Shown: positions 1-19,282, counted from the stretch's first letter. The stretch: 64,000 nt of DNA from Spirochaetota bacterium (GCA_963664815.2 CAXXHB010000003.1:2336001-2400000); one strand, 5' to 3'. Notes: generated by a model not told the origin, from the letters alone. Made by a program: numbers and translations.

Positions 1-600
1 AAAATGACCTCCTGCAATATAAGCAACCTTCCCTTTAAATAAATCAATTACACCGGAGGTAACAGTGCCCGGGAAATGATCATTAGAACTTATTGCCGTA
101 TGCACAAGAACAATATTTGCCTTGTCTGCATCAAGTATCTCAGCAAGAGAACGCGACATGTCTTCTATATAAATTCCCGGATATCCCATTGAATAAAAAT
201 ATATGCCGTCAATTATAACCGGTTCAAAAAGATAATCATTCTCATCATCAGGTATAACTGATGGCATATAAACAAGTTTTCTGTGTGCCAGATAGTTAAG
301 CCAGGTGGAGTCACTGCTCCCGCCGCGATCATGGTTACCCTCAGAGATAACTGTTTTAATACCGGATTCATTAAGTTTTAAGAATAACTTTTCCGCACGT
401 TCCAGTATCTCCGGAGTAATTTCACGACGGTCAAATATATCACCCGATATAATTACAGTGTTAACTGAATTCTCAACAGCGTACTCTGCAATATGGTTAA
501 ATGAATCAAAGTAATCATTAAACCTGGAGCCGGAATATTCCCCTATCCCGCCGACAGGACGCCTTCCAAGGTGAAGATCGGAACAGTGAAGTATTTTCAT
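1..600 (-). CDS. sbcD: SbcD/Mre11-family metallophosphoesterase (DNA repair exonuclease), 3' end outside window
   Basis: Not in the ORF track. Manual translation from ATG at 600 gives MKILHCSDLHLG...IISGDIFD...EGNHD...VLVH...YIAGGHF, the calcineurin-like motifs of SbcD/Mre11. GAGG lies upstream and the frame stays open to the window edge. Confidence 0.85.
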   Translation of the reverse strand, partial: MKILHCSDLHLGRRPVGGIGEYSGSRFNDYFDSFNHIAEYAVENSVNTVIISGDIFDRREITPEILERAEKLFLKLNESGIKTVISEGNHDRGGSSDSTWLNYLAHRKLVYMPSVIPDDENDYLFEPVIIDGIYFYSMGYPGIYIEDMSRSLAEILDADKANIVLVHTAISSNDHFPGTVTSGVIDLFKGKVAYIAGGHF

Positions 601-926
601 ATAACCTCTGAATCTTTGTTTATCTCATTCATTAAACGTTCAAGTCAAGTATCTTTAACAATTGTCTTTTAATAAAACGTCTGAATTGTATATTTTACCA
701 ATAATAATCCTGAACTATTTTATTTATTTATTATTTTTCCACTACATCACTCTTTTTTTATAATTATCTGAAAACTGTCAATTCAGCTGCACGGCTTCAT
801 ATGTATAATAATTCTATTTTTTTACAGTTTAATACGCCGGGAATTCTCGCATTACAATAAAATTTATTTGACTAAAGAATAAACACTTATATAAATTTGA
901 TCTATTATTTCAATAAGGAGTTTACC

Positions 927-1922
927 ATGTTGAGTTATCTTGCAGATTGTGTTACATTCTGCGTCAAATTTATACTTTTATTAGCATCATCACTTCCATG
1001 GACAGGAACGAAACTTGGTCTTGGCGCCTGGGCTCTTATTCTTGTTATAACCGGGATTCTGCTTTATTACCCGGTTTTCTTTGTTCTTTTAAAAAAAGGA
1101 AACAGCAGGGCTATCCTTGTATGGCAATGGTTTTTTTTCGGAATATTTTTCCTACCTACCGCTGTTTACGGCTCAGTACTTCTACATTACGCCTCCGGAC
1201 ATCTCGATTTTTTTTCTAAATCTGTCAGCTGGGTTCAATACTGGGGTGGAGACGGGAAGTCCATTCACTGGTTTTCTCTTCCTACATGGAAGTTTATCGG
1301 CATATGTCTCCTGATCGTCATCGGAGCATGGTTCGCGGCGGTCATGATAGAAAATATCCTTGTAGGATCATGGCGTTTTGATTTCACACAGATGGAAGAA
1401 GATCCACTGATGGTAGATTCAACAATGTGGATCATTTTAGGGGCAGTCGGCGGCGGATTTTACGGATTTTTTGCAATGCTCAACCGGAAGGAAACGTTCG
1501 ATTTTATAAACAATAAAGTGGCATCAGGAAAGTACTCCGGATTTTTTACCTGGCTCATGTTTCTTGCCCTTGTTATTATATTACTTATGTTTCTTTTTCT
1601 TGTGGCAAGGGCTGTTATATCATCCGGAATTTTTGCACCGGCATGGTTAGCCTGCATGCTGCCGGTAGCGGGCACGACTTTTTTCCTGGCTGCTTTTATG
1701 GTACCATTTGTTATCGCTGTTCTTGGTATATATTTTCTTCTAGGGGGACTTGCCGAAGCCGGCAGCGGAAAAGTAAGCCCGACTAATTTCAAAAGCGTTT
1801 CAATGGGCGCACCTCAGCAGGAGGACTTCTGGGCAAAGAACGCGCGTATGCAGGCTTCCGGGTTTGAATACTCTATGACGCAGGCGCAGTGGGTAAATAA
1901 AAATCCCTCTAATGATGACTGA
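927..1922 (+). CDS. Polytopic membrane protein of unknown function
   Basis: ORF 897-1922 has about 8 hydrophobic segments. AAGGAG precedes ATG at 927, the likely start. Convergent with the kinase operon. Confidence 0.7.
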   Translation: MLSYLADCVTFCVKFILLLASSLPWTGTKLGLGAWALILVITGILLYYPVFFVLLKKGNSRAILVWQWFFFGIFFLPTAVYGSVLLHYASGHLDFFSKSVSWVQYWGGDGKSIHWFSLPTWKFIGICLLIVIGAWFAAVMIENILVGSWRFDFTQMEEDPLMVDSTMWIILGAVGGGFYGFFAMLNRKETFDFINNKVASGKYSGFFTWLMFLALVIILLMFLFLVARAVISSGIFAPAWLACMLPVAGTTFFLAAFMVPFVIAVLGIYFLLGGLAEAGSGKVSPTNFKSVSMGAPQQEDFWAKNARMQASGFEYSMTQAQWVNKNPSNDD

Positions 1923-1950
1923 AAATCAGCGCCTTTGTAATTATAAATAA

Positions 1951-3342
1951 TCAGTCGTGTACCTGGACGAAGAGTTCTTCGTCCAGGTCGTAGAAAAGAT
2001 AAAACGTATTGTTTCCGGCCTTAACAATTCCTGAATTCAGCTGAGCTGCAAATTTCATTCTTTCACCACTGCTGTTAACTGGCGTCAGATCAATACCTCC
2101 GATCCACTTCGGAGCACCTTTCATGACACTGTTCAGATCAGGCATTATCCGTTTATGCATTCTGTTGCTTCGCTGTATCTCCTTTTGCAACAGATTCAGC
2201 ATTCTGGTCACAGTCATATCATCAGGTTCACTTTCAAACAGATTCTCACTTAAATTTTTTGCTTCAAAATGTGCAAGATAATGTAATATACGGCAATAGC
2301 GTCCTGATTCAGAGTGTACAGGAACATGTACAGATTTTGAATTAATGTTCCAGAACCATATAAGTTCCTCTTTTATTTCAGGACTGAAATTTTCAAAAGC
2401 AGCTAATTCTTCAGATGTAAACAGACGCTCATAACGACGAAACATTCTGTAATCACCTGAGAGAAAAAAACAGTTCCCCGTCCATTCCCTGTCAGATTCA
2501 CTGAGAAGACAACGCAGCAGCGGCCTAAGCCCTGCAGTTTTCTTATCACGTGAAGGAAAGGCAAAGACATTCTGAATTGAAGGATAGACATAACACATTG
2601 CAGGGAAAAAATCACTGACAGGTTTTGAGATTTTCTCTTCAGATGCTAAACCTGATTTGCCTATATCAGATACACTGAAATGTTCCGTTTCTATTATGAA
2701 GACTTCATCTGAATTTTTACGCGCCTGCCTCTCAATCTGCCTTAATACCAGCCGTGAATCATAATCCCTGAGATGTTTCTCCGCTGTTTCGATTGTTGAA
2801 ATTGCATCGGCAAAAAGTCCAAGCTCACGTTCAGCCTCAGCTTTTGCAATATAATCACCTGATTCTTCCGCCAAGAAAATTATTCTTTTCAGTGTTTCCG
2901 CAAGATCCAGGGGAAGACAGCTATCCGCCTCTACGGAGGTATATTTTCTCCTGTTATGATTTTGCTCCCACCATAGACGGGTATATAGTATATATTCATA
3001 TCGACGATCAGCGGGTTTTAATTTTCGGCTTTGAGGGAACAGCTCTGTTATAGCTTCAAGGTAACTGATATCATTCTTTTTATCGTCTATGCCTATAAAA
3101 GGGAGTTCCTGGTAATCTTCACTCCCCGGCACCTGTTTTTTTATTTTCGCTTTCGCTATAATAAACCATCTGCTACAATAATGACATAGTTCCACAACCG
3201 GCTCCATCGGATACATAACAGCACTGTAGTACCCGTCAGACCAGAACCTGGCACCAAAAGTATTCCCTGATATTAAGATCTGTTTTCTATACAGTCCTCC
3301 ACAATGAGTACATGATATTATTTCATCCTTTCCGGAACCCAT
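1951..3342 (-). CDS. Zinc-finger (CxxC...SGNTFGA.FWSDG...CxxC) plus TPR-like helical protein with a C-terminal YwqG/DUF1963-like segment
   Basis: CTHC/CHYC pair; helical segment IAKAEAERELGLFADAISTIE; C-terminal GAPKWIGG...MKFAAQL...FYLFYD. Last gene of the operon. Confidence 0.6.
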   Translation of the reverse strand: MGSGKDEIISCTHCGGLYRKQILISGNTFGARFWSDGYYSAVMYPMEPVVELCHYCSRWFIIAKAKIKKQVPGSEDYQELPFIGIDDKKNDISYLEAITELFPQSRKLKPADRRYEYILYTRLWWEQNHNRRKYTSVEADSCLPLDLAETLKRIIFLAEESGDYIAKAEAERELGLFADAISTIETAEKHLRDYDSRLVLRQIERQARKNSDEVFIIETEHFSVSDIGKSGLASEEKISKPVSDFFPAMCYVYPSIQNVFAFPSRDKKTAGLRPLLRCLLSESDREWTGNCFFLSGDYRMFRRYERLFTSEELAAFENFSPEIKEELIWFWNINSKSVHVPVHSESGRYCRILHYLAHFEAKNLSENLFESEPDDMTVTRMLNLLQKEIQRSNRMHKRIMPDLNSVMKGAPKWIGGIDLTPVNSSGERMKFAAQLNSGIVKAGNNTFYLFYDLDEELFVQVHD

Positions 3343-3345
3343 ACA

Positions 3346-3582
3346 CTATCCTGTGATTTTCACTATTTCTTCAAGACGATTTCTGAGAGTATCTGCTTCT
3401 TTAACATTTCCCTCCGCTTCTGCCTCAATGAGCATACGGCGTACATGTACTTTTTCAGCCCTTATGTTTTTATACTCCTCTTCAAGTTCTTCAAGTGTCT
3501 CAATCTTTCTGATCCGCTCGGACAGATCGCCAGGAAGAATTTCTTTCATCATTTTTTTGAACAAATCATTCTTCTCCGTCAT
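3346..3582 (-). CDS. Small coiled-coil protein
   Basis: 78 aa, highly charged and helical; 3-bp gaps to both neighbours. Confidence 0.65.
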   Translation of the reverse strand: MTEKNDLFKKMMKEILPGDLSERIRKIETLEELEEEYKNIRAEKVHVRRMLIEAEAEGNVKEADTLRNRLEEIVKITG

Positions 3583-3585
3583 AGC

Positions 3586-3873
3586 TCATACCATTATTTC
3601 ATCAGGTGTTATATCCCCGTTTTCAACAAGCACACGGATTGCACGAAGTGTCCTTTCCTTTCCCTCTTTATATCTTTCAAGATTATCTCGGTTTAATCTG
3701 CCGATCATCAGGATGAGTTCTTTTCTATCTTTTTCACGCATATTTTCCGCAAATAGATGAACAATTTTCTCATCCTTATCAAGAAGAAACCATGCTATAT
3801 CCTCCACATCCAGTTCGCGTATAATTTTTTTAACAGCCGTATCTGCAAAAGAGAGAAGATCATATTCCTGCAT
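3586..3873 (-). CDS. Stand-alone FliG C-terminal-domain-like protein
   Basis: YDLLSFADTAVKKIIRELDVEDIAWFL...LFAENMRE...AIRVLVENGDI resembles FliG-C (F.DL..L.DR.IQ..LREV....LA.AL...IF.NMS.R...IR.L...GEI). Confidence 0.65.
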   Translation of the reverse strand: MQEYDLLSFADTAVKKIIRELDVEDIAWFLLDKDEKIVHLFAENMREKDRKELILMIGRLNRDNLERYKEGKERTLRAIRVLVENGDITPDEIMV

Positions 3874-3934
3874 AATTTTTTCTCAATTCCTTTCCTTCAA
3901 TTATTGTTAAACAACACATTAGATACCGTAATTA

Positions 3935-6900
3935 TCAATTCTCATAGCTTCTGTACATACGATAAACCTTTTCAAATTTTTCAGAGATCGTTGTCATCAT
4001 AAACACTATTGCCATTGGTATTGCCAGCATAACAAGATATGCCGCAATAACCGCTGTACCGTCAGGAAATTTCTCTATTAGCCCGGGGATTAATCCGCCA
4101 GCCGCATATATCTTCTCACTCCCCGGAATCATAGAAGCCGCCCTGTGTCCGAAGGCAACCAGAACAGGGAATAAAACAGGTAATACAAAAATATACAGTA
4201 TCTGCCCCTCAAACCTGTTCAGCGTATTCACCAGTTTAATCCTGTAATTATAAAATGAACCACAGATTATCATCAGAGTATATGCAATAAAAAAATGTGA
4301 AAGTAAAAAAGCTATAAATCCAAGAAGTATCGGTGATAATGAAATCAATCCGGTAATCCTGCTTACGATATCAAAAGAGAAGAACAGCATCAGAATCGTT
4401 ATCCCTTTTATGGCCGATCCTGTTACACTATTTAACAGGTGCCGTATTTTTAAACCTTTCCCGGGATCAAGAATGGATGCTGTATCATTAAACTTTTCCC
4501 TCTTTGCATAGCAATACGCGGTTTCTCCATCCGGGTCTGCAAGCATTATATCAGCCCCGTATTTAATCAGCATCCTTACTATTCCATTATGACCATCTCC
4601 GGCGGCAAGCATAAGCGGAGTACATTCATCAACAGTGGTAAAAACATTTACCCTTGCACCTTTTTTAAGCAACAATTCCACGATTTCGGGTGAAGATTCC
4701 CTTTCTGTGATTTTGGAATGCTGTAATATGGCCCCCATAAGCGGAGTTATGCCATGTTCTTCCCCTCCATTGATATCAACTCCTGCATCTATAAGAGTTT
4801 TTACAGTCTCAAGCGCCTCCCCCTTTTCATCATTTCGTAAAGCATAGTGGAGCAGATTACAGCCATCTTCCAGAATGATCTTCGGATCAGCGCCCTTTTC
4901 AAGCAGAAGTTTAACAATAGTATTCTGTGATTCTGCTGTTGCTGTTTCATCAGGTGATCCCATAAGAAGAAGCTGCAGCGGCGCGTATTCTCTATCTTCC
5001 TCTTTCTGAGGAAGATTCGGATCAGCTCCTCTGTCAAGGAGCATGGAAGCAATTTCAACATTTCTCCAGCATGCAGCAAGACCCAGAGGAATCTGGCCAT
5101 TCAGGGCAGGACTGTTTACATCAGCGCCGTTGTCCAGGAGTATAGATGCCATTTTTTTATTGCCGGTCAGTATGGAACAATTAAGCGGAGTGGTGTCAAA
5201 ATCGAGAAGTTCAGGATGTGCATTCCCGTTGACCGGAAGGCCCTGAGAAATATAGAATTCCATAAGATCAATCCTGTTCCCACAGGCAATAATACAGGCA
5301 TCTTCAAGCCATTTATTATCATTCCATAAAAACAGAACATCACGGCAATTTCTGAATGGAAACATTTTCAGTACTGTAAAGCGCGAAACAGGATGCATGT
5401 TCATAAGACTGTATGTATCATTAATGATGTTTCTCTTTTCAAGCCATACCAGGAGTTTCGAATCGTCAGTCATTATCCCGCTGATAATCTCCTGCCGTAT
5501 TTCAGGATCTGTTTCCAGCGCCAATTCCTCAGGACTGTAGTAATATTTACCGAGTAGTTTTATCCGCCCTTCACCGTTACTCTGAAGACTAAGAATTACC
5601 GTGTTGAGGGCTCTCTCTTCTGTAATCGCGTCTGAATCAAAGAGATCCCAGAAAGAATCAGCAACGGTTTTCCCGTTTTCTCCGCCAACGGCTTCAAGAT
5701 AAAGATAAAACGGCGACAGGGGGTTTTTAAGCTCCTCCTGGTAATAGATATTGTCCTGATGTGTCAACTCGTCAATTTTAACCATGTCATGAGCTTCAGC
5801 CTCAAGCGCATCCCCCAGTTCCTCGGCAGTAGTACACAACCTGCCCTTATGAGAGATAAATGGTTTTCCCGGATCCAGAGTATATATGGCACGTGTAAGC
5901 CCCGCATTTCTTTCATCACTGCCACTGTATAATTCGATAATTTTCTCCATTTCAGTTGAAAGGGCCATATCATTTGCTTTTTCAAGCCATTCCTTGATTT
6001 TCCCCATATACAGATAATCTGCGCCGCGTTCCGGATGCTTTTCAAGAAGCACTGCTAGTTCTGCAGGGGTTGAGAATGTTTCCGTTGAACTGAATGACCG
6101 CTGTTCATAGGGCCGCAGTGTCGAATTGTAGCTGACTGTCAGTTTTTCTCCTGCAATCCATTTTTTTATTTCACTGTACCCCCACCTCTCTTTCGGAAGT
6201 GGGTTTATAAGTCCTTTGATAAGTACAGCAAGATCAGGGTCCATGCCTCCCGGAAATTCAACTGTTTTATCCCGCACCATTGCAGATCTTATTGCGTCGG
6301 GGATCCCCCTGAATGGTTTTTCTCCAAGCCAGAGATGATACATCGTTATCCCGAAAGCAAAATAATCGGCTGCCTTCCCGGCCATAACCTCCGTCTGGTT
6401 TCCAAACCTCATCAGTTCTGGTGCGGCATACTCTTTCGTACCGTTAGCCCTTACAATTGCCTCACCGGTTCCGTTTTTCATCAGGCTGGAAATACCAAAA
6501 TCCGCCAGCACTACAGATGATCTTGTCTGATCTGTAAAATACACATTTTCCGGTTTCAAATCCTGGTATATTATACCGAGTTCATCATGCAGAACACGCA
6601 GACCCTCGGCAATATTTCCTGCCAGCTTTTTGAGCTGAACAATATTGCTTAACGGTCCAATTTCACGAAGATAACTGTCAAGAGGCCCTCCTGAAGCATA
6701 ATCCATTATTTCAAAATCACGTTCTTCAAACTGTCCAAAATCATGTATTCCTATAATCATTCCCGAACGATCAGATCTGATTTTGCTTATAACATCTTCC
6801 GGAAATTTATATCCCTTCCTGTAATGTTTCATTACAAGAGGTTTCCCACCAAGCTCAATTTCATATATTATTGCCTCACCGGAGGAAATGCTGATAATTC

Positions 6901-7255
6901 TTTTTATTATATAGTTTATTCCATTCAGTTGTACAGTTTTCCCCGGTTCAAAAATTTCATCTCCCTCTGTCTGTTTATGCAATAATACCGACTGGCTGTT
7001 CATTATTCTGATGGTTTCCGCATCCTGCTGGGTATCACCTCCGGCTGCGGATGTAATTTTTATTGTTTCAGCGCTGTTATTATCAATACATACAGTTGAA
7101 TCTGCCGAATCTGCAGATTTTTGTTCATCCAGCCTTACTGTCGGCTGGTTTATATCATTGATCCTTACGGTTGCTTCTGCGGAATCATCAGCTTTTATAT
7201 CATCAATCCTTAACGTCGCATTATTAATTCTTACTGTTTTATTATTTTCACTCAT
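3935..7255 (-). CDS. Hanks-type Ser/Thr protein kinase with N-terminal TxxI repeat tail, ankyrin repeats and C-terminal TM helices
   Basis: Kinase motifs LVMKHY, YQDLKPEN, LADFG, GTKEYAAPE, DYFAFG. About 6-7 ankyrin repeats (TPLNCS..GN...LLDNGADVN; TPLMLAAGDGH..LIKYGAD). About 4 hydrophobic helices at the C-terminus. Confidence 0.92.
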   Translation of the reverse strand: MSENNKTVRINNATLRIDDIKADDSAEATVRINDINQPTVRLDEQKSADSADSTVCIDNNSAETIKITSAAGGDTQQDAETIRIMNSQSVLLHKQTEGDEIFEPGKTVQLNGINYIIKRIISISSGEAIIYEIELGGKPLVMKHYRKGYKFPEDVISKIRSDRSGMIIGIHDFGQFEERDFEIMDYASGGPLDSYLREIGPLSNIVQLKKLAGNIAEGLRVLHDELGIIYQDLKPENVYFTDQTRSSVVLADFGISSLMKNGTGEAIVRANGTKEYAAPELMRFGNQTEVMAGKAADYFAFGITMYHLWLGEKPFRGIPDAIRSAMVRDKTVEFPGGMDPDLAVLIKGLINPLPKERWGYSEIKKWIAGEKLTVSYNSTLRPYEQRSFSSTETFSTPAELAVLLEKHPERGADYLYMGKIKEWLEKANDMALSTEMEKIIELYSGSDERNAGLTRAIYTLDPGKPFISHKGRLCTTAEELGDALEAEAHDMVKIDELTHQDNIYYQEELKNPLSPFYLYLEAVGGENGKTVADSFWDLFDSDAITEERALNTVILSLQSNGEGRIKLLGKYYYSPEELALETDPEIRQEIISGIMTDDSKLLVWLEKRNIINDTYSLMNMHPVSRFTVLKMFPFRNCRDVLFLWNDNKWLEDACIIACGNRIDLMEFYISQGLPVNGNAHPELLDFDTTPLNCSILTGNKKMASILLDNGADVNSPALNGQIPLGLAACWRNVEIASMLLDRGADPNLPQKEEDREYAPLQLLLMGSPDETATAESQNTIVKLLLEKGADPKIILEDGCNLLHYALRNDEKGEALETVKTLIDAGVDINGGEEHGITPLMGAILQHSKITERESSPEIVELLLKKGARVNVFTTVDECTPLMLAAGDGHNGIVRMLIKYGADIMLADPDGETAYCYAKREKFNDTASILDPGKGLKIRHLLNSVTGSAIKGITILMLFFSFDIVSRITGLISLSPILLGFIAFLLSHFFIAYTLMIICGSFYNYRIKLVNTLNRFEGQILYIFVLPVLFPVLVAFGHRAASMIPGSEKIYAAGGLIPGLIEKFPDGTAVIAAYLVMLAIPMAIVFMMTTISEKFEKVYRMYRSYEN

Positions 7256-7267
7256 CGCTTTCTCCTT

Positions 7268-8080
7268 TTATTTCAGGTTCAGCGGAGGACGTTTATATCC
7301 CCTGTCGCTTTGTAGAATCATCATATTAATATTGCTTTTATCCAGATAATAGCTGTAAACCTTATCGATACCGTTTTTATCGCTTTTTTTAGCATAATAA
7401 CCGGCTTTTTTCTCTTCAATATCCTTCAATCTGAAATACTCGGGATTTTCTTCTTCAAACTTTCTCCTTTGTGCATCTGTCACTTTTTTTAATGCAAAAT
7501 TCTTTATTACATACTCCCTGTATGTTTTTTCAAAAGCATCTATTGCATTTTCCATATTGAACACAGTTACCGAATCCTCCCAGTGCCTCGGCATTAATAT
7601 GAAACCTCTGACAGGTGTTTCACCACTGTAAAATTCGGCAGGAGCCCATACATCGCCACCACGCCGTATAACTCCTCCGAGAATAACAACAGTTCCCCGC
7701 GGGACAGACATCACCGGCACCGTCGTTTTGATCATGTCGCTCCCTGTAATTTTAGTAAAGAAAGGTCTTTCTGCGGTAAGAGTATATGTAGCGCGGCTTT
7801 CACCTTTTACAATTGAACTAGAATAAGCCTCATGACCGTATATGTAGAAAGTTCTGATGTCAATCACATTACCCGCAGTTGAAATAATACGGCTGAAACC
7901 GCCTCCATTAAAAAAAAAGATCAGAAGCAAAACTACCCCTGCCGGAATACCGATTTTCAAAAACTGTACCAATCTGACTACAAACCTGGTAAACCAGTTT
8001 ACGCATTCCGGGCACTGCCTGTTATTAAAGAATCCTCCATCAAAATCGCTGTCACAGTTTGGACAAGTCCAAATGGTCAT
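7268..8080 (-). CDS. Zinc-ribbon, single-TM protein with a probable extracytoplasmic domain
   Basis: WTCPNC...QCPEC followed by hydrophobic GIPAGVVLLLIFFF. AGGAGG precedes ATG at 8080 (ORF track starts at 8104). Confidence 0.7.
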   Translation of the reverse strand: MTIWTCPNCDSDFDGGFFNNRQCPECVNWFTRFVVRLVQFLKIGIPAGVVLLLIFFFNGGGFSRIISTAGNVIDIRTFYIYGHEAYSSSIVKGESRATYTLTAERPFFTKITGSDMIKTTVPVMSVPRGTVVILGGVIRRGGDVWAPAEFYSGETPVRGFILMPRHWEDSVTVFNMENAIDAFEKTYREYVIKNFALKKVTDAQRRKFEEENPEYFRLKDIEEKKAGYYAKKSDKNGIDKVYSYYLDKSNINMMILQSDRGYKRPPLNLK

Positions 8081-8081
8081 T

Positions 8082-8807
8082 TTATACCTCCTGTATCGAT
8101 GCAATAATTACCGATATATTATCTTTACCACCCCCTGACTCAGCTGCAGAGACCAGTGCTTCCAGCGGACAGGGATTTGTTTTAAGTATATCTTCAATTT
8201 CATCAGTATGTACAATGTCATGCAGCCCGTCGCTTGAAAGTAAAATAATATCAGTTGATGATAGTCCCACATCTATCGGAGTAAACTCAAGAAACATTTT
8301 ACCACCTCCGCCGAATGAATTGGTTATTATATTTGACGGGGCATCGGGCATGCTCCCTGACTCCCTGAGAGAATGATCCATTGTCAGTCGTTTCAACAAT
8401 CCATGGCTGAAAAGCCAAAGTCTTGAATCACCCGCGTGAAAACGAAAAGCTTTACCCCGATAAAAAAGAATCCCAACCAATGTAGACCCGCTATTCTTTG
8501 GCACTTCCATGTGAGTTTCTTCGGCAAAAGTCCTGAAAACCTCAGCAATCTCATCGTCGGAAAGGTCACCCGGAATACCATGCATGAAATACAAGAGCCT
8601 TTCCAATACCATGGCGCTCGCTTCTTCGCCATTCTCAAGCCCCCCCATTCCATCAGCAACCGCAAGTACAAATGGTTTATCATTTTTATTAATAATTTCA
8701 GCTGAATATCTCCCGTCACGTAAAAGCTTATCGTCAACAAGTATCATATCTTCATTACTGGAGCGTACAAGACCGATATCACAGATTGCGGATACTGAAA
8801 TGCGCAT
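8082..8807 (-). CDS. PP2C/PPM-family Ser/Thr phosphatase (PrpC/Stp1-like)
   Basis: DIGLVRSSNED, AVADGMGG, GSTL, HAGDSR, LLSSDGL and GGKDNIS motifs. Confidence 0.95.
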   Translation of the reverse strand: MRISVSAICDIGLVRSSNEDMILVDDKLLRDGRYSAEIINKNDKPFVLAVADGMGGLENGEEASAMVLERLLYFMHGIPGDLSDDEIAEVFRTFAEETHMEVPKNSGSTLVGILFYRGKAFRFHAGDSRLWLFSHGLLKRLTMDHSLRESGSMPDAPSNIITNSFGGGGKMFLEFTPIDVGLSSTDIILLSSDGLHDIVHTDEIEDILKTNPCPLEALVSAAESGGGKDNISVIIASIQEV

Positions 8808-8809
8808 AA

Positions 8810-9382
8810 TCAGATTCTGGCAGTCGCGTTTTCAGATACTGCTATTTCTACACTAAAATCAATATCAGCTATTCTGAGGGTTGAACCGTTATTTACAGTA
8901 CCGGCTTTATTCGGGACAAGTTTAACCTTGTTAATATAAGTGCCATTGGTCGACCCTGTATCTGAAACAGTCCATATGCTGTCATTATATTCAATTTTAA
9001 TATGACTCCCGGACACCTGCGGAAACCGGCTGAATATTTCAGCAAACGGGCCTGATTTACGTCCAATAACATCTCCATGTGAAGGTGTTATATCTATTCC
9101 ATGCGTTTTACTGTAAAGCCTGAGCTTAAATGGCTGCAACTGCTTAGATTTATCTCCATGATCAGTAGTACCAGAAGATACTGCAGACATTTGCTGTACA
9201 GGAATTGTTTCCGTGCCAGTATTCACTTCATGACCAGGTTTAATCATCACCTGCCCGTCAAAGATACATCTTTTCCCCTTGCCCGGCCTTCCGCAGAGAG
9301 AACACAATAATATCTCTCCGCCACATTGGTCACAGTATATCGAATCATCATCTATTGTTTCCCTGCAATAAGGGCAGTTCAT
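8810..9382 (-). CDS. Double zinc-ribbon plus FHA domain protein
   Basis: CPYC/CDQC/CSLC at the N-terminus. FHA pThr-binding motifs IGR, VSGSH and GSTNGT. C-terminus is ...ENATARI. Confidence 0.92.
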   Translation of the reverse strand: MNCPYCRETIDDDSIYCDQCGGEILLCSLCGRPGKGKRCIFDGQVMIKPGHEVNTGTETIPVQQMSAVSSGTTDHGDKSKQLQPFKLRLYSKTHGIDITPSHGDVIGRKSGPFAEIFSRFPQVSGSHIKIEYNDSIWTVSDTGSTNGTYINKVKLVPNKAGTVNNGSTLRIADIDFSVEIAVSENATARI

Positions 9383-9405
9383 AATATTCCTCCTATCCTG
9401 TTCAC

Positions 9406-11958
9406 CTATCCTGTCACAGTACGGTCAAGATCCTCGGTACGCATTATCCTGATCTCTCTTTTCAGAATCTCATCTTCCACTCCCCTGTCCTGCATCCCGA
9501 TTATGCGGCTGGAGAGTTTTTCTCTTGTCTTTTCAAAAACCTGCCGGACTGTCCTTGCATTAGCGAATGTAGCGCTTTTACCCGAATGAATCTCTTTCAT
9601 TCTTTCCCTGAGCGTTGCTTCAAATCCGTCAGCATATTCAATTTTTTTACTCTTTGCCATGGAATTGAATATTTCAACCATTTCATCCGGAGTGTAATCC
9701 TCGAATGTAATGAAATTAGTGAAACGCGATTTAAATCCGGAGTTTGATTCAATGAACTCATCCATCTCACTTTTATATCCGGCTGCGATACATACGAACT
9801 TACCCCTGTCATCCTCCAGACGCTTAACAAGGGTGTCAACAGCCTCTTTGCCATACTGGTCACCAGCCCCCTGATTCAGCGAATATGCCTCATCTATAAA
9901 AAGTATACCACCCATTGCGCTGTCACATGCGGAATTAACAAGGGGCGGAGTCTGCCCCATATGCGTACCTACAAGCTTCCCGCGGTCCACCTCAACCCGG
10001 TTGTTTGAAGGAAGCATTCCGATTCCCTTAAAAACATCTCCAAGAATACGGGCAACAGTAGTTTTACCGGTACCCGGATTCCCATAAAAAATAAAATGTT
10101 TGGAGACTGCATCCTCCTCCCCCGAAATTTTACCCGCACGGATTGTATTTATTATTGCATTCACTGCTTCTTTAACCGACGCAAGACCTGTAAGTTCATT
10201 AAGCTCTTTCAAGGCATCGTCAACGGTTACAGCCTTTGCCGATGTAGTAAGAGGTATATCTGCCGCAGTTATGGTAAGTATATCTTTTGTGTTATATGCT
10301 TTACCTTCATCTGCCGATTTAGCCAGGCGGTCTGACTGATTGCGCCTGGCATCTTCAAACAGATTGCGCGCTTCACGGCCATTGGCAAAATCTTTCGTTT
10401 TTCTTGAGCAGCGGTCTTTAAAAAATAAAAGAACATTTTCTGCCGCATTTTCTTCTACTATATATTTCTGCTGCCTGGCTTCAATTTTAAATATTTCAAC
10501 AAGTTCTTCCGGATTGTAATCTTCAAGATGAAAACGTTTATTAAACCTGCTTTTAAGACCATCATTCGCCGAGATAAATTTATCCATAGGCTCTTTATAT
10601 CCGGCGGCGACAACCACGAATTTATCTCTGTCGTCCTCCATACGCTTGAGCAGAGCCTCAATAGCCTCAACTCCGAAATCGTTTTCACCACCCTTGGCAA
10701 GGGTATATGCCTCATCGATGAATAACACCCCCCCCATTGCCTGATCACAGAGTGCATTAGTCTGCGGAGCTGTCTGTGCAATATAACCGGCCACCATTTT
10801 ACTCCGATCAACTTCTATTACATGTCCTGTTTCAAGTACGCCCAGCCCTTCAAGTATGCTTCCGAGAAGACGTGCTACCTTTGTTTTACCTGTACCAGGA
10901 TTACCTGTGATGGTAAAATGGTTTACCGGTTTTTTAATTTCTGTCCCGCTGGCTGCCATATCCTGAACATTTTTCATCTGATTAAACAGACTTCGTATCT
11001 CTGCTTTAATGTTTTCCATACCGATAACAGCATCAAGTTCGGCCATTATTTCATCAAGACTTCTCTTCTTTTCAACGGGAAGCGTTACATCCTCTTCAAT
11101 TATAATTTTATCCGCTACTTTCCTTTTAAAATAAGAGGACATAATTTCACGGGCCTCTTTCAACGCGAGGTAACCGTTATGAGCACTGATCTCTGAATCT
11201 GACCTCTTCAGATCTTTTATCAAATATCTGAATCTTTTATTGATCTGATCTTTTACATCTCCGGAAACAATAAGTCCCTGCCTGTCAAGCTCATGACAGA
11301 CAATATCAGAACACTGCGCCGGTGTGTAATCCGGGACAAAAAAGATATTCTGGAAACGACCTGTAATATTTTTATTCTCCGGTTTTTTTACAAATTCCCT
11401 GAACCCGAAAGGAAGCCCGGCAAGTATTACAACAGGATCATTTTCAGATGAATCTATCTGTGTTATAAGAGTTCCAAAGCCGGATGATGCCTTTCCATCT
11501 GAATCAACAAGTTTATGTGCGTTATCAATGAAGAGTACTCCCCCTTTTGCAGCATTAAATATTTTTACAAAGTCAGATGAACCCATTTTTTCGAGTGAAC
11601 TGCCATCCAATACTTCCGGCGTCTTTTTTGTTATCACTCCATAAGATTCAAGAATAGAGGTAATAAGATTTCCTGTAAGCGTTTTTGCAGTACCTGAATT
11701 TCCGATAATAATTGTATTGTACGGTATTCTGAAAGAAGCGCCATTTCTCTTCATACCATCAAGGACATCACTCAGTCCATTCAGTTCTCTTTTAATCTCA
11801 TCAAGACCTACCAGACCATCAAGCAATCCGGGTACACCTGAGGAAATTATGTTATCACCAGCAGCCTGCATCACCGATACAAGACCTTTTCCGCAGTATC
11901 TGCAGAATTTTGCCGTACCGCGGTTATCCTTGCCGCAGTTGCCGCATTTTATAGACAT
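9406..11958 (-). CDS. Triple-module CbbX/SpoVK/EccA-type AAA+ ATPase with N-terminal zinc ribbon
   Basis: Three AAA modules: GNSGTAKT/VLFIDNAH, GNPGTGKT/VLFIDEAY, GNPGTGKT/ILFIDEAY, with SRF and FANGR/FANAR motifs. GGAGG precedes MSIKCGNC at 11958 (ORF track start 12051 overlaps the upstream gene). Confidence 0.92.
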   Translation of the reverse strand: MSIKCGNCGKDNRGTAKFCRYCGKGLVSVMQAAGDNIISSGVPGLLDGLVGLDEIKRELNGLSDVLDGMKRNGASFRIPYNTIIIGNSGTAKTLTGNLITSILESYGVITKKTPEVLDGSSLEKMGSSDFVKIFNAAKGGVLFIDNAHKLVDSDGKASSGFGTLITQIDSSENDPVVILAGLPFGFREFVKKPENKNITGRFQNIFFVPDYTPAQCSDIVCHELDRQGLIVSGDVKDQINKRFRYLIKDLKRSDSEISAHNGYLALKEAREIMSSYFKRKVADKIIIEEDVTLPVEKKRSLDEIMAELDAVIGMENIKAEIRSLFNQMKNVQDMAASGTEIKKPVNHFTITGNPGTGKTKVARLLGSILEGLGVLETGHVIEVDRSKMVAGYIAQTAPQTNALCDQAMGGVLFIDEAYTLAKGGENDFGVEAIEALLKRMEDDRDKFVVVAAGYKEPMDKFISANDGLKSRFNKRFHLEDYNPEELVEIFKIEARQQKYIVEENAAENVLLFFKDRCSRKTKDFANGREARNLFEDARRNQSDRLAKSADEGKAYNTKDILTITAADIPLTTSAKAVTVDDALKELNELTGLASVKEAVNAIINTIRAGKISGEEDAVSKHFIFYGNPGTGKTTVARILGDVFKGIGMLPSNNRVEVDRGKLVGTHMGQTPPLVNSACDSAMGGILFIDEAYSLNQGAGDQYGKEAVDTLVKRLEDDRGKFVCIAAGYKSEMDEFIESNSGFKSRFTNFITFEDYTPDEMVEIFNSMAKSKKIEYADGFEATLRERMKEIHSGKSATFANARTVRQVFEKTREKLSSRIIGMQDRGVEDEILKREIRIMRTEDLDRTVTG

Positions 11959-11971
11959 ATCGGAATCCTCC

Positions 11972-13003
11972 TTAACTTGGCCCTTTAATATTAACATCAA
12001 TTGTGCCGCCAGTATACCAATAACCGCCAAGTTTCGGTTCATCACAGGCATTAGGTCCTTCCGGACAGAGATGTACAGTATTTGTAAAATTGCAAAGCCA
12101 GCCTGTTACTTCCGGAGGCTTCATCGCCATATGATAACGCCGTGCCTCCTGCTGAGTGGTAAACTTTTTATTTCTGAATTTAAGCATTGCTTCATTAGCC
12201 GCCTTCTCCGCAGCGCTTTTTTTCTTCTCAAGTTCGGCTTTCTTCATCATTAACGCGTCAAATTCAGCATCTTTTACTGCACGTATTCGTTGCTCTTCCA
12301 ACTGTTCGTTACGTGCAGCTTCCTCTTCTTTAATTTTTTCGGCCTTTGCTATTGTCTTCTCAGACCCCAGAATTTCCTTAATCTGTGCATCTGAAAAAAA
12401 GGATGGTTTCACCGGTGACACCGCTGCAATTGAAGGAGATTGTCCCTCTTTATTTTTTCCCGCTTCTTCAATAAGACGTTCAATTTCCGACAGTTCTCTT
12501 TCAAGAGAAATTGATTCCCGTACTGTCTCTATAAAATTTTTTGCTTCTGGATCTTTCTGCGCAGCAACTGCTGCTGAACGCGCGTATTCTGTCAGAGGTT
12601 TATTACATTTTGAACAGAAATCAAATATGCTCTTTGTGCCGCAGGAGGGACATACTATACCATTTTTATCATTACCGCATTCCGGGCAAAACGAAGCATC
12701 ATCAGGAATTTCAGCATAACAGAATTTACATCTGCCGTCAAGAAGCCATTCTCCGCAGAATGTACAGATATCTGCTCCCGGATTAACCGGTTTACCACAA
12801 TGAGGACAAAAAAGCGGTGCATTCAACATCGAGCCGCATTCCAGACAGTACTCAGCTTCAGGAGGATTCACGGTACCACATGAAACGCATTTTATTCCAT
12901 CTTCAACAGACTGCTGATTGGATATCTCTTTTTGGAAAGCCTCTTCATGCTGTTGTTTTGCAAATGAAGACTGCTTCTCTTTGCCCTGATAATTACCGGT
13001 CAT
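11972..13003 (-). CDS. Multi zinc-ribbon (DZR) plus coiled-coil protein; first gene of the operon
   Basis: Eight CxxC motifs (CVSC, CLEC, CPHC, CTFC, CKFC, CPEC, CPSC, CSKC), a coiled coil, and a C-terminal Cys/His motif WLCNF...HLC...AC. Confidence 0.85.
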   Translation of the reverse strand: MTGNYQGKEKQSSFAKQQHEEAFQKEISNQQSVEDGIKCVSCGTVNPPEAEYCLECGSMLNAPLFCPHCGKPVNPGADICTFCGEWLLDGRCKFCYAEIPDDASFCPECGNDKNGIVCPSCGTKSIFDFCSKCNKPLTEYARSAAVAAQKDPEAKNFIETVRESISLERELSEIERLIEEAGKNKEGQSPSIAAVSPVKPSFFSDAQIKEILGSEKTIAKAEKIKEEEAARNEQLEEQRIRAVKDAEFDALMMKKAELEKKKSAAEKAANEAMLKFRNKKFTTQQEARRYHMAMKPPEVTGWLCNFTNTVHLCPEGPNACDEPKLGGYWYTGGTIDVNIKGPS

Positions 13004-13456
13004 TTTATGATACCTTTTATAAATATACTATGCTGATCTATTTTTTACCAGATATTAGTGTTGCCATTCTCTTTCATATTAAAACAAACCGCTCTATGAT
13101 ATGTTCCGACATAACATGGTCAAGCTTTTTACATATATTTATATATATAAATGTTTATTTTAAAACCTCTGATTGATACAATAATACAATGTGGGCATTC
13201 TGATAAAAGAGGTTTAATAAACTGAATCATACATTTGATAACTATTACTGAATTCGTATTAATAAGTTATAACACTATTTACTCAGATGATGTCAGTATT
13301 TAATTATTTCAACCTCTATACTGCACTTTATCAGGAATTTTTTGATTTTTCCGTAAATCAATATATGCTTGTTTTTTTTACTGTATTAATATTATTAGAT
13401 ATTTAAAATTTTTTACTTTTATTTGCTGATTAAAATTCAATAAAGAGGAATTTGCT

Positions 13457-14884
13457 ATGGACGATCTTTTCCCAGATAACGAATTACTTTCACTGCTGAA
13501 CAGCGTAATAAACGGAGATCAGTCATCCGGTAAAAGCCAACCTCAGCGTTTTATTCCTGACAACAAGCCATCACAGATACATAACCTTGATATTCTTCGA
13601 ACTTCTGTTTTTACAGACGACGATCTGGAATCCTTCACCCGTGCCCATGATAAAACTGCAGCCGAAATCGGCAAAATCATCGGCGGGATGGTTGTCACTG
13701 CAGACTTTTCAGGAGCGATTCTTACAGGAGAATTTCTGCGCAGCGTGCCTGCCGATTCTTTGACATATATTCTCGCTTTTCAATCCGGCCGTTATGACGG
13801 TTTTATTGAAACTGACCAACCACTGTGTGAATTTTTAAACGATGAAATTGTAAATGAAATAGTTTCAGTTATAAATCAATTCCCTGTAATAAATATGGAA
13901 CTGAATTGTACTCTGTCAGGGAAAACAGAGGGTCCTTTTCTCCAGAACCATGACAAAACAGTATTCTGTAAAATGTCAGCAAAATACGGTGATAAAGTCT
14001 TCGGCATAAATATCGGCTACGATATAAACCTGGCTGCAAAAATGCTGAATATTTCCCTGCCTCATGATATTCCGCTAAGTAGAGATACTTTCTATATCGG
14101 TTCCGCAGGAATATCAAAAATTTTACAGCTTATTCCCGGGAAAAGTATATCTTTGCCTGAAATCTGCCCGACTGTGTATCACACCCGTATAGAAAATACG
14201 GAAAAAAACATGGATTACACAACACTTAGTACAGATCCCTTTATGGAAAACATAAGGTTTCCTCTGACCGTTTCTTTCAGTCATTCTGTTTCAGATATTT
14301 ATATGACTGAAGGGGAACCAGCAAAACTCTATGCTGGTTCCAACCTGATTGCTTCAGTTGTAATCCGAAAAAAAAACGGCCTTCTCACAGCATCTGTAAC
14401 AGATCAAAATATAGACCACGAATACGATAATGCCGGGCAAAACACACTGATCCCTGTTTATGCGGAGTTAGGGAGATGCATATATACTGATGAATCGTTT
14501 TCTATCGGACAGATTCTCCATCTTTACAACGATCGTTTCCCGCATATCAGGCTTTATGCAGGATCAAATCTCTATATGGGGGAATGTGAGGCCATATCCT
14601 GTGACAGCAGTTTCGCAGCAAGAATACTTGATACCTCACCGATAGAACAAAATCCCTCTGAAAGAGGAAACCTCCGTTTTGTTCTTGCAGTAAGAAATTT
14701 TCCTTTACAGGATATATCATCCATTGAAAAGTACGACAACCTTATCTTTAACGGACCTTTTACCGGAGATATTCTGATTTATAATGGTAATCGTCAGGTC
14801 GCCTGGGGGCAGATATCCGAACAAAACAATGATTATTGCATACGTGTTATTTCAATTCCTGAAGACAAGGGTGATCATTTATGA
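13457..14884 (+). CDS. Divergent FliM/FliY-like protein with repeated SpoA (FliN-like) segments
   Basis: N-terminal DNELLSLLNSV and FTDDDLESFTRAHD echo the FliM N-terminus. C-terminal repeats such as IPVYAELGR...SIGQILHL...IRLYAG and DILIYNGNRQVAWGQISEQNNDYCIRV fit the SpoA pattern. Confidence 0.5.
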   Translation: MDDLFPDNELLSLLNSVINGDQSSGKSQPQRFIPDNKPSQIHNLDILRTSVFTDDDLESFTRAHDKTAAEIGKIIGGMVVTADFSGAILTGEFLRSVPADSLTYILAFQSGRYDGFIETDQPLCEFLNDEIVNEIVSVINQFPVINMELNCTLSGKTEGPFLQNHDKTVFCKMSAKYGDKVFGINIGYDINLAAKMLNISLPHDIPLSRDTFYIGSAGISKILQLIPGKSISLPEICPTVYHTRIENTEKNMDYTTLSTDPFMENIRFPLTVSFSHSVSDIYMTEGEPAKLYAGSNLIASVVIRKKNGLLTASVTDQNIDHEYDNAGQNTLIPVYAELGRCIYTDESFSIGQILHLYNDRFPHIRLYAGSNLYMGECEAISCDSSFAARILDTSPIEQNPSERGNLRFVLAVRNFPLQDISSIEKYDNLIFNGPFTGDILIYNGNRQVAWGQISEQNNDYCIRVISIPEDKGDHL

Positions 14885-15240
14885 CAGAGTCATTTCATGT
14901 AGGTTATCGTGCAGAAAATGACACCAGCGGATCAAGATTTTATCTTCTTTTCTGTAAAGCTCTTGAACTGAAAGATATACCACCGGCTGAAGATAACGAT
15001 CCCGATTTCTGGCATACAATCTCCCTTATCGGAGTTATAGCCTGGAACCTTAGCTTTGAACCTGAAACCGGAGAAAATCTGATTCAGCACATGGAAAAGG
15101 AATATGACATGTCCCTCCCCCCTTCATTTCATAAAATCATGACCACTATGATCGAAGACAGAAGAGCAGCTTTTCCGGATGAAAGTTGTCTGATAAAAAA
15201 GTGCCGTTTTGAATGGCCTGATATGATCGTGGAGTATTAG
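14881..15240 (+). CDS. Hypothetical protein
   Basis: 119 aa; ATGA overlap with the upstream gene. Confidence 0.6.
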   Translation: MTESFHVGYRAENDTSGSRFYLLFCKALELKDIPPAEDNDPDFWHTISLIGVIAWNLSFEPETGENLIQHMEKEYDMSLPPSFHKIMTTMIEDRRAAFPDESCLIKKCRFEWPDMIVEY

Positions 15241-16081: not shown

Positions 16082-17143
16082 CTAACTGAATTCCCTTTTC
16101 ATTACCTCTAGCAGCCGTTTCATATCATCATTCCTGCCGATCGTTATTCTTACAAAATCGGTTATACCTGGATGATTAAAAAAACGTACAAGTATCCCAG
16201 CTGATTTAAGAGTATTGTAAACGGTGATGCCGTCAGTTCCGTTTTTTCTTGCAAAGACAAAATTCGACAGTGATGGCAAAACTTCCCATCCCGCCTCACG
16301 AAGCCCGCTGGCAAAGACCTCGCGGGTCTCCTGTATCATTGAATTGATTTCCCTGTAATACTCACTCTCTTTACATGCTGCGATTCCAATACTCTGAGTC
16401 AATGTATCCACCGGGAAATGATTAAACGAGTTTTTTGTTGTGAAAACAGCATCTGTCAGTTCGGGATTTGCAATCATATAACCGAGACGTGACCCTGCGA
16501 AGCAGAAACCTTTTGAGAATGTTCTTATAATAACCAGGTTTTTGTACTCCCTTAGAAGAGGTACGGCAGACTCACCGCCGAAATCAATATAGGCTTCATC
16601 AACAACCACCACACGATCGGATGAATACTGCTCCATAATGTAACGTATTTCCGTCACAGGCATATATATCCCCGTGGGAGCATTTGGATTTGCAAAAATT
16701 ATACCCGAGCTTTTACCGTTCAACAGCGCATCACTGTCTATTGAAAAATCACCTTTCAGAGGAATTCTTCTGAAAGGTATTCCATAGTATCCTGCATATA
16801 CCGGATAGAAACTATATGTATGTTCAGGGAAATAAAGCGGCGCATCATTATCAAAAAAAGTATAAAAAACAAAAGAGAGAACTTCATCTGAGCCGTTACC
16901 TGCAAAGATCATATCCGGCGTTACATCGTCTCCATACATTGATGCTATTGCTTCACGCAGTTCACGTGCGTCAGGATCAGGATAAAGGCGCAGCTTTGAA
17001 TGATCAAACTCTTTCAAAGCTCTATTCACTTCAGGTGATGGCAGATATGGATTTTCATTTGCATTGAGTTTTATATATAACCTGTCAGATGGCTGTTCAC
17101 CCGGTACATAAGGTTTTAATTCTGAAAAGCGTTTAGAAAACAT
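16082..17143 (-). CDS. hisC: Histidinol-phosphate aminotransferase
   Basis: PYVPGEQP, KLNANENP, YPDP, GNGSDE, NPNAPTG, VDEAY and RTFSK motifs. Confidence 0.95.
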   Translation of the reverse strand: MFSKRFSELKPYVPGEQPSDRLYIKLNANENPYLPSPEVNRALKEFDHSKLRLYPDPDARELREAIASMYGDDVTPDMIFAGNGSDEVLSFVFYTFFDNDAPLYFPEHTYSFYPVYAGYYGIPFRRIPLKGDFSIDSDALLNGKSSGIIFANPNAPTGIYMPVTEIRYIMEQYSSDRVVVVDEAYIDFGGESAVPLLREYKNLVIIRTFSKGFCFAGSRLGYMIANPELTDAVFTTKNSFNHFPVDTLTQSIGIAACKESEYYREINSMIQETREVFASGLREAGWEVLPSLSNFVFARKNGTDGITVYNTLKSAGILVRFFNHPGITDFVRITIGRNDDMKRLLEVMKREFS

Positions 17144-17193
17144 GAATAAACTCCGGGGATTAAATTTATTTGTACTGAATCCATTTTATTTAT

Positions 17194-17730: not shown

Positions 17731-17874
17731 ATTTTATCCCCTGTTTGATATTCTTTATAAATATTAACAATCTTTTTTTAATTTTGTTATTGATTACTCC
17801 GGATATTATACTGTAAATTAAATTTCAATTTTTTATGATAATATTAGGAATATAACATTCAGAATCCGGATGAT

Positions 17875-18612: not shown

Positions 18613-18762
18613 GACAGAGGTCTTAACAACATTTATAACAGATTCGTTTAATTTTTCAGCCTCTATACATGGTATATATAATAGTTAAAGAGCTTTAAAA
18701 TCCCCATCAATATTTCCAGACTGCCGCAAACAGCAGTCTGGAAAAAAATGCTGATAATTGCT

Positions 18763-19077: not shown

Positions 19078-19282
19078 AAATTCCTCGCTATATAGGTTTA
19101 CAAATAGTGGACTAATTCAATTGTTATATTCTATAATCGAATCTTAAACGGCCATAATCAATCTTCAATGAAATTTGATATTTTTAATATTGATGAATAA
19201 TTTACAATGTAGTGTTTTATGATCAAATACTTTTTAAAACAGATTTGTTTAATGCGTGTTAATTTACCAGCGGATGAAGCAT

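Follow-up and report, generated by a model that had tools for sequence, protein, structure and literature searches.

We report here on a row of nine genes, numbered g1 to g9 from the higher coordinate downward (Table 1), at positions 1951–13003 of a 64,000-nt stretch of DNA from a Spirochaetota bacterium (GCA_963664815.2 CAXXHB010000003.1:2336001-2400000); this whole stretch is called the window below. The first six genes encode a protein with multiple zinc ribbons (g1), a chained AAA+ ATPase (g2), an FHA protein with zinc ribbons (g3), a PP2C phosphatase (g4), a membrane protein (g5) and a membrane-bound Hanks-type kinase (g6). Judging from sequences and gene order, we consider the chances somewhat better than even that g1–g6 constitute one conserved and self-contained phospho-threonine switch, which would be built around the membrane kinase and the chained AAA+ motor. 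Triads of kinase, PP2C phosphatase and FHA protein are known, but in most bacteria without a known output; in the present case a tandem CbbX/EccA-type AAA+ protein and a multi-zinc-ribbon protein are joined to the triad. The cassette is apparently an unstudied case of kinase/PP2C/FHA signalling with an undescribed output arm.

Conservation of the linkage was examined by scanning an alignment of zinc-ribbon FHA proteins against one genome per species, which gave 70 loci, and by scoring the open reading frames (ORFs) of these loci with the window proteins. All five core genes (g1, g2, g3, g4 and g6) were found in 46 of the 70 loci, and the complete loci have the order g1-g6-g2-g3-g4 in 41 cases and g6-g1-g2-g3-g4 in 5. 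The AAA+ gene is directly followed by the FHA gene in 65/70 loci and the FHA gene directly by the PP2C gene in 61/70, and according to the locus coordinates the start and stop codons of core genes often overlap by 4 nt. Most of the incomplete loci are interrupted by contig ends, and L085–L087 are not the cassette. A first-pass annotation of this DNA had proposed that a writer/eraser/reader triad and an AAA+ motor make up a self-contained unit and had suggested a gene-neighbourhood search as a check; the synteny found with the zinc-ribbon FHA protein agrees with the proposal. Given this recurrence elsewhere, the clustering of g1–g4 and g6 is beyond chance, and there is no such showing for g7–g9.

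The window differs from the general cassette in that the kinase comes last, g5 is added and two rather than three AAA modules are active. The features of the general cassette that it retains are the co-oriented and adjacent core genes, the ribbons on the AAA+ and FHA proteins, the degenerate first AAA module and the transmembrane (TM) bundle of the kinase. The order with the kinase last and g5 between the PP2C and kinase genes (g2-g3-g4-g5-g6) is seen again in L092, and the window-type order is found, in part, also in Candidatus Fibrimonas (L019), without g5 in a Brevinematales metagenome-assembled genome (L018), and in the metagenome contigs L091–L094. The conserved unit consists of g1–g6 in the clade of the window and of five genes (g1–g4 and g6) in general. 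The first-pass annotation had drawn the unit with nine genes: its six-gene part stands, whereas g7, g8 and g9 have no homologue downstream of the kinase in L018, L019 and L092, the three closest window-type loci with sequence past the kinase.

The 70 loci belong mostly to rumen and gut Prevotella and other Bacteroidales, and the other carriers are Spirochaetota, the Brevinematales genome, Candidatus Fibrimonas (Fibrobacterota), Desulfuromonadales, Smithella and Cloacimonadota. In rumen Prevotella the cassette has a fixed position, between the genes for an M13 peptidase and for homoserine O-succinyltransferase/U32 peptidase, in 8 of the 17 mapped loci. Carriers in cultured form are among the matches, namely Prevotella sp. 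tc2-28 and Prevotella sp. P5-50. Two genomes of the same family as the window (G011 and G009) carry a row of kinase, zinc-ribbon protein, four-module AAA+ protein, zinc-ribbon FHA protein and PP2C phosphatase. The triple AAA+ protein is absent from all seven other genomes of the genus, which hold only a single-module paralogue of about 640 amino acids (aa) with 41–44% identity to g2, and zinc-ribbon-bearing orthologues of g2 occur in about 9 of the 401 sampled genomes of the phylum, when matches starting at profile position 2–4 are counted. The closest relatives of g3 lie in other phyla (Fibrobacterota, 42% identity; Brevinematales, 47%), which suggests horizontal transfer. Some Muribaculaceae and Bacteroides loci (L068, L072 and L075) have an extra gene of about 290–310 aa, without a Pfam family, between the kinase and a three-module AAA+ gene. 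A single-module CbbX/SpoVK-like AAA+ gene (G000:C3:280965-281798, in a frame of about 640 aa) is kept across most genomes of the spirochaete family.

Domains of the nine proteins were assigned by Pfam, NCBIfam and PADLOC-DB 2.0 scans, and nearly all domain calls of the first-pass annotation were confirmed by them. The kinase g6 (Pkinase 1e-27 and ankyrin repeats 6e-34 in Pfam) has the sole Pkinase match of the genome (5.2 Mb). Its motifs VMK, DLKPEN, DFG and APE are all readable in the sequence, and it is a non-RD kinase because the catalytic loop reads Y-Q-D. Homology to the orthologues covers residues about 105–480, i.e. the kinase core and about 110 residues beyond it. Four hydrophobic segments are present at the C-terminus (952, 971, 1015 and 1065), and all 54 full-length orthologous kinases listed have at least one hydrophobic segment C-terminally, most having three to six, so that the membrane anchoring claimed earlier for this kinase holds in every full-length orthologue examined.

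The segment preceding the kinase domain has a special composition. Among 43 distinct kinases its median length is 49 aa, and threonine accounts for 13% of it versus 4.4% of the rest of the protein (about 3-fold), while serine is at 6.9% versus 6.5% (medians). The threonine-enriched tail was found in 42 of the 43 kinases, and at least two T-x-[RK] motifs in 36 of the 43; these statistics omit 10 kinases missed by the G-loop pattern, which show threonine repeats by eye. The repeated unit depends on the clade: T-V-R-I, T-E-R-M, T-x-R-P, G-T-A-T-A-P-Q or S-T-G-R-A-S-G-R. In g6 itself T-x-[RKC]-[IL] is found at residues 7, 14, 29, 39, 54, 64 and 81, and six T-x-[RK]-[ILMV] occur in the tail against 0.2 expected, a number that none of 2000 shuffles reached. 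This motif was not found elsewhere in g6, and among 12 proteins of the region it is present only in g6 and g3. FHA domains recognise phospho-threonine and not phospho-serine. A tail specific for threonine, carried by the only kinase and with a conserved FHA reader next to it, points to autophosphorylation of the tail as the docking signal.

The putative reader g3 has a Pfam FHA match (6e-12) and a double zinc ribbon, and is one of two FHA matches in the genome; only its FHA domain is similar in sequence to solved FHA proteins. The residues of the phospho-threonine pocket are well maintained, G107, S124, H127 and N146 being invariant and R108 conserved at 90% or more in 36 orthologues. In all four window-type loci compared (the window, L092, L018 and L019) the FHA protein ends in [GA]-T-x-R-[IL], the repeat of its own kinase. 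The FHA protein GarA carries a phospho-acceptor tail of its own, and the motif shared by the end of g3 and the kinase tail suggests that g3, like GarA, has a tail that binds the protein itself or competes. The presumed eraser g4 is above the Pfam cut-off for PP2C/PP2C_2 and is the only PP2C_2 match in the genome; its NCBIfam Stp1_PP2C match (2e-32) is below the cut-off of that family. NED, DGMGG, GDSR, SDG and DN can be read in its sequence, which we take to be the metal-binding motifs of PP2C. Kinase motifs, FHA pocket residues and PP2C metal motifs are all found intact in the window.

For g5, which combines a zinc ribbon with one TM helix (from hydropathy; helix 24–56 in the model), no Pfam family was found. 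Its AlphaFold2 (AF2) model has a predicted local distance difference test score (pLDDT) of 85–93 for residues 100–270, and the best fold matches are bacterial SH3b cell-wall-binding domains, weak ones with a Foldseek E-value of 0.03 and with Z 4.5–5.5, the Z-scores being within the noise range of the tool. A single-sequence query of genome contigs with g5 found no relative, and an alignment query found four metagenome loci (L091–L094); the orthologues in these loci and in L019 lie between the PP2C and kinase genes where the contig shows it.

The AAA+ protein g2 matches Pfam AAA in three stretches (3e-41) together with AAA_lid_6, behind an N-terminal zinc ribbon. Walker A/B motifs are at residues 86/139 in the first module (D1), 352/409 in the second (D2) and 626/683 in the third (D3); Walker B of D1 is non-canonical (D-N), and those of D2 and D3 are canonical (D-E). 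After the degenerate D1, two canonical modules follow in the window and in some Bacteroidales, and three in Prevotella and other spirochaetes. If the dead module lies outside the ring, a hexamer would be formed by three chains with two active modules each, or by two chains with three. C5, C8, N12, R13, A16, C19, C22 and G23 of the ribbon are invariant in 32 N-terminal segments, and all 56 long g2 orthologues listed begin with a zinc ribbon, for which reason we have placed the start of g2 at 11958. The invariant adjacency of the AAA+, FHA and PP2C genes, often with overlapping codons, suggests that the reader works with the motor. A complex prediction of g2 residues 1–306 with g3 gave scores of 0.23, 0.43 and 0.22 against a mark of 0.32, which count neither for nor against binding.

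The remaining core protein g1 has a Zn_Ribbon_1/DZR match in Pfam (2e-18) and eight CxxC readable in its sequence. In 25 orthologues C106, C109, C118, C121, C130, C133, G327 and W329 are invariant, and W302, H311 and C320 are conserved at 90% or more; the C-terminal knuckle has the conserved pattern W-x-C-N ... H ... C ... G-G-x-W. T-x-R before the first zinc ribbon was found in 21 of 50 g1 orthologues, mostly of Prevotella. These 21 proteins have one to three such motifs each, similar to the repeats of the neighbouring kinase, and in Prevotella (loci L020–L059) the g1 orthologue itself may be a target of the kinase.

On the basis of these features we propose the following scheme. The C-terminal TM bundle would hold g6 in the inner membrane with all soluble parts in the cytoplasm, and the activated kinase would phosphorylate threonines in the disordered tail at its own N-terminus; the probable trigger is a membrane or envelope state, sensed in this clade perhaps together with g5, a protein with a zinc ribbon, a TM helix and an SH3-like domain. 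The FHA domain of g3 would then bind pT-x-x-[I/L/M] sites of the tail, as in PknG-GarA. At rest, the T-x-R-I tail at the C-terminus of g3 may occupy the FHA pocket or compete for it, as in GarA/OdhI. Docked g3 would recruit, or release, the AAA+ protein g2 and the zinc-ribbon scaffold g1, probably gating the motor; within g2, the ribbon and the ATPase-dead module would be the adaptor part and the two active CbbX/EccA-type modules the motor. Finally, g4 would remove the marks and reset the switch. Which protein phosphorylates which, and every protein contact in this scheme, we infer from the features described above. A more specific version, which we put forward only as a doubtful possibility, holds that the number of phospho-threonines on the repeat tail encodes the strength of the signal, that the zinc-ribbon FHA adaptors read this number, and that the chained AAA+ ring unfolds or extracts a specific client. 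Taken jointly with the same tentative standing, this phospho-gated unfoldase might act on the multi-zinc-ribbon protein or the kinase as its client, with self-inhibited adaptors and a reset by PP2C.

Several points weigh against this scheme. The residue at position +3 from the phospho-threonine varies by clade, being I, L or M in the window type, P or V in Prevotella and A in T-A-T-A-P-Q, and one binding rule therefore cannot hold for all clades. The cassette is dispensable in this lineage, since all seven other genomes of the genus do without it and about 9 of 401 genomes in the phylum sample have it. Synteny is all that ties g1 of the window to the switch, because no T-x-R motif is found in it. 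The envelope-sensing input is drawn from the weak fold match of g5 and from TM topology, and is to be taken as a lead only. Furthermore, the AAA+ protein may be co-expressed with the triad and not controlled by phosphorylation.

A precedent among the systems described so far is PknG of mycobacteria and corynebacteria, which autophosphorylates threonines in its disordered N-terminal extension, and these anchor the FHA domain of GarA/OdhI (PMC8546545). The window shares with PknG a threonine-bearing N-terminal kinase extension beside an FHA protein. Helical repeats after the kinase core are likewise common to both, TPR in PknG and in the G011 orthologue and ankyrin in g6, and the T-x-R-I end of g3 is comparable to the phospho-acceptor tail of GarA. 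In contrast, PknG is a soluble regulator of 2-oxoglutarate metabolism which lacks an AAA+ partner and whose operon has no dedicated PP2C, whereas g6 is polytopic with up to seven near-identical tail repeats, g3 has two zinc ribbons, and a tandem AAA+ protein is always adjacent.

Another relative in its list of parts is the threonine-phosphorylation pathway of P. aeruginosa's type VI secretion system (T6SS), where the membrane Hanks kinase PpkA, the PP2C phosphatase PppA, the scaffold Fha1 and the AAA+ protein ClpV1 are encoded together and phosphorylation of an FHA-linked step precedes the action of the ATPase. Unlike that pathway, the present ATPase is not ClpB-like but belongs to the CbbX/EccA/SpoVK clade with 3–4 modules per chain; zinc ribbons are found on both the FHA protein and the ATPase, and a multi-zinc-ribbon protein comes in addition. 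CbbX, EccA and SpoVK assemble as homo-hexamers of chains with a single AAA+ module each. Modules D2 and D3 of g2 align over their full length with the nearest solved chains, EccA1 (9lur, 1e-50) and CbbX (3syk, 7e-46), but a g2 chain strings together, behind a ribbon, one degenerate module and two active ones, and its orthologues one plus three; in this spirochaete family, the separate single-module paralogue is the conserved one. The spore_V_K match of g2 in NCBIfam (493 bits; cut-off, 423) is reached only as a sum over the three modules, and the architecture differs from that of SpoVK, a single-module protein of endospore formers. CbbX as Rubisco activase has its one module encoded next to red-type RuBisCO genes; we rejected this function for g2, because each chain has three modules and no RuBisCO is linked, the sole RuBisCO_large-family match lying 1.4 Mb away. 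This match (87.8 bits, G000:C3:922437-923135) is probably a RuBisCO-like protein of a heterotrophic-looking spirochaete.

The architecture of zinc finger plus FHA reader is shared with ArnA of Sulfolobus acidocaldarius, which modulates motility together with ArnB, binds a multiply phosphorylated partner and is under the control of Hanks kinases and a phosphatase (PMC6509490). The cassette differs from ArnA-ArnB in that the presumed ligand is the own tail of the kinase and an AAA+ motor is added, and a vWA family, to which an ArnB-type partner would belong, is missing from all proteins scanned, both the nine and those of the flanks. In the full texts of the literature, supplements excluded, we found no description or name for this gene set, in line with the earlier statement that it is not a named system; where FHA, PP2C or zinc ribbons come up in excerpts of a 2020 eLife paper on conflict systems (PMC7159879), the systems concerned are others.

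The first-pass annotation had also raised an anti-phage role, i.e. a conflict system in which the kinase would sense infection or membrane damage and the AAA+ protein or the kinase would be an abortive-infection effector kept in check by the PP2C and FHA proteins. The patchy occurrence in genus and phylum, the nearest relatives in other phyla, the variation between loci of the genes after the kinase, and the location in a stretch (at least 897–14884) where the flanking genes, too, are without matches in five genomes of the genus all speak for this role, and so do PADLOC matches, at the level of domains, to kinases and ATPases of defence systems (mad6 5e-32, PD-T4-6, IetA 6e-17). These matches, including one to TRIP13, are however to different systems and cover only generic kinase, ankyrin and AAA cores, and g3, g5 and g7–g9 match nothing in PADLOC-DB 2.0. 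No recognisable effector (nuclease, TIR, protease or pore-former) is present in the conserved genes, and the fixed Prevotella position between housekeeping genes is unlike that of mobile defence islands; window positions 1–25000 contain no tRNA, and the flanking proteins that were scanned include neither an integrase nor a transposase family. We find no positive evidence for the anti-phage role and regard it as unlikely.

The parallel with the archaeal ArnA, which with ArnB represses motility, leads to a different thought, that the genes control the flagellar motor in this spirochaete, through g7 and a divergently transcribed FliM/N-like protein. The genome, with its three full FliG paralogues, belongs to a flagellate, g7 passes the Pfam cut-off for FliG_C, and the 475-aa protein encoded at 13457–14884 (+) matches FliMN_C (SpoA) at 25.9 bits versus a cut-off of 23.8, although no single stretch of it passes the cut-off alone. 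We consider this control quite improbable, because neither g7 nor the FliM/N-like gene has homologues in any related locus, an ArnB-type vWA partner is missing from the nine proteins, and Prevotella and other Bacteroidales, where the core cassette is most frequent, have no flagella. Still less probable is a regulatory module of a secretion machine, either of T6SS type with ClpV or of the type VII secretion system (T7SS) with EccA. The parts list does equal that of PpkA/PppA/Fha1/ClpV, and of all solved chains EccA1 is the one that g2 resembles most; g2 also exceeds the NCBIfam EccA cut-off when its three modules are summed (475 versus 467 bits), but has a zinc ribbon and extra modules instead of the N-terminal TPR domain of EccA. 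The T6SS sheath marker VipB/TssC, the one T6SS marker searched, has no match genome-wide while the control matches in E. coli, and the T7SS marker WXG100 has none in the whole genome, which is 96.2% complete; nor was a secretion gene found in the flanks of loci whose gene families were examined. A secretion module is thus largely refuted for this genome, and the earlier remark that secretion-system structural genes are absent from the window is extended by these searches.

Returning to the phospho-threonine switch, we regard as new the spirochaete/Fibrobacterota variant with the kinase last, an added g5, ankyrin repeats and two active AAA modules, as well as the threonine-specific kinase tails, the tail motif shared by kinase and FHA protein and the singleness of the kinase in the genome. 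Threonine-repeat tails and a matching tail on the FHA protein constitute a docking code that can be tested directly, and the pathway should be free of cross-talk because the organism has a single Hanks kinase. If the motor is phospho-gated, this would be a new bacterial route for coupling membrane signals to protein remodelling, and a large class of CbbX/SpoVK-like ATPases, orphans until now, would receive a function. The arrangement is present in abundant rumen and gut Bacteroidales in addition to spirochaetes, Fibrobacterota, Desulfuromonadales and Cloacimonadota.

The layout of the locus is given in Table 1. All nine ORFs are on the minus strand, and the intergenic gaps from g1 to g9 calculated from their coordinates are 13, 23, 2, 1, 12, 61, 3 and 3 bp; co-orientation, gaps of 1–23 bp with one of 61 bp, and zinc ribbons in five of the nine proteins (g1, g2, g3, g5 and g9) had all been read correctly in the first-pass annotation. 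The same DNA is present in three sequencing runs from two studies, and a search for RNA runs of it came back empty.

Table 1. Positions in the window and main features of the nine genes and of selected segments within them
Feature	Position	Strand	Description
g1	11972-13003	-	343 aa; four zinc ribbons (8 CxxC), charged helical linker, C-terminal Cys/His knuckle
g2	9406-11958	-	850 aa; N-terminal zinc ribbon, degenerate AAA+ D1, canonical CbbX/EccA-type D2 and D3
g2 zinc ribbon, residues 4-25	11884-11949	-	C..C...NR..A.FC..CG conserved
g3	8810-9382	-	190 aa; double zinc ribbon, linker, FHA domain, C-terminal T-x-R-I tail
g3 last five residues	8813-8827	-	A-T-A-R-I, copy of the kinase-tail motif
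g4	8082-8807	-	241 aa; PP2C phosphatase
g5	7268-8080	-	270 aa; cytoplasmic zinc ribbon, one TM helix, outward domain including SH3-like barrel (94-174)
g6	3935-7255	-	1106 aa; Thr-repeat tail, Hanks kinase, post-kinase region, ankyrin repeats, C-terminal 4-TM bundle
g6 N-terminal tail, residues 1-102	6950-7255	-	T-x-[RKC]-[IL] repeats
g7	3586-3873	-	95 aa; stand-alone FliG_C-like domain
g8	3346-3582	-	78 aa; charged helical protein
g9	1951-3342	-	463 aa; zinc ribbon, TPR-like helices, alpha/beta C-terminal domain

On one side of the row, the divergent FliM/N-like gene is followed by an ORF of 119 aa at 14881–15240 (+). On the other side, directly downstream of g9, a gene at 897–1922 (+) encodes a protein of 341 aa with about nine hydrophobic segments and no Pfam family. 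Neither the 475-aa FliM/N-like protein nor this nine-segment protein has a match in five same-genus genomes, and the strain-specific stretch (at least 897–14884) is therefore wider than the operon; the FliM/N-like protein and g7 bring two flagellar-switch-like domains into it. On the left it is adjoined by genes for an SbcD-like metallophosphoesterase and an SbcC-like SMC ATPase, at window positions 1–600 (-) and in L090 at 16568–20000. The complete genome of another member of the genus (G006) has 3.8 Mb between the SbcD-like gene and the orthologue of the aminotransferase gene at window positions 16082–17143, which indicates that the region has been rearranged. We tried to define island borders by synteny and abandoned this, because with the border genes so far apart in G006 no clean insertion site can be drawn.

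The genes g7–g9 are tightly spaced neighbours of g1–g6. A scan for promoters and terminators gave results close to those of shuffled sequences (26 versus 29.5 and 12 versus 8.5) and does not discriminate a separate g7–g9 transcript. In the three window-type loci the kinase is followed by other genes: desulfoferrodoxin and a B12-binding protein in L092, DUF4760 and a TPR protein in L018, and a BspA-type leucine-rich-repeat protein in L019. The FliG_C match of g7 (29.9 bits versus a cut-off of 23.3; 7e-7) is the fourth and weakest in the genome, after the three full FliG paralogues. For g8, whose sequence is rich in charged residues and leucine, no family was found in Pfam, NCBIfam or PADLOC and no homologue in related loci.

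The last gene, g9, has no Pfam family and was suggested to be an orphan by an empty first homologue search, a view overturned when a full HMMER search gave 876 representatives at E<=1e-3. A narrower alignment of the family gave no locus in a scan of genome contigs, and one weak match was found in 400 other genomes of the phylum. C11, C14, C53 and C56 are conserved among the relatives in the alignment. The AF2 model of g9 has a pLDDT of 85, and its residues about 109–211 are weakly TPR-like, with Z 9.0 to 4cgu_A, which is under the caution mark of the tool for helical repeats; the best score in the ESM Atlas is 0.85, and such matches are leads only. The first 190 residues are also found as stand-alone proteins of about 210 aa. 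Beyond the ribbon and TPR-like part, members of the family have a middle domain and then a conserved beta-rich C-terminal domain, and the relatives are annotated as 'hypothetical' or 'TPR repeat protein'.

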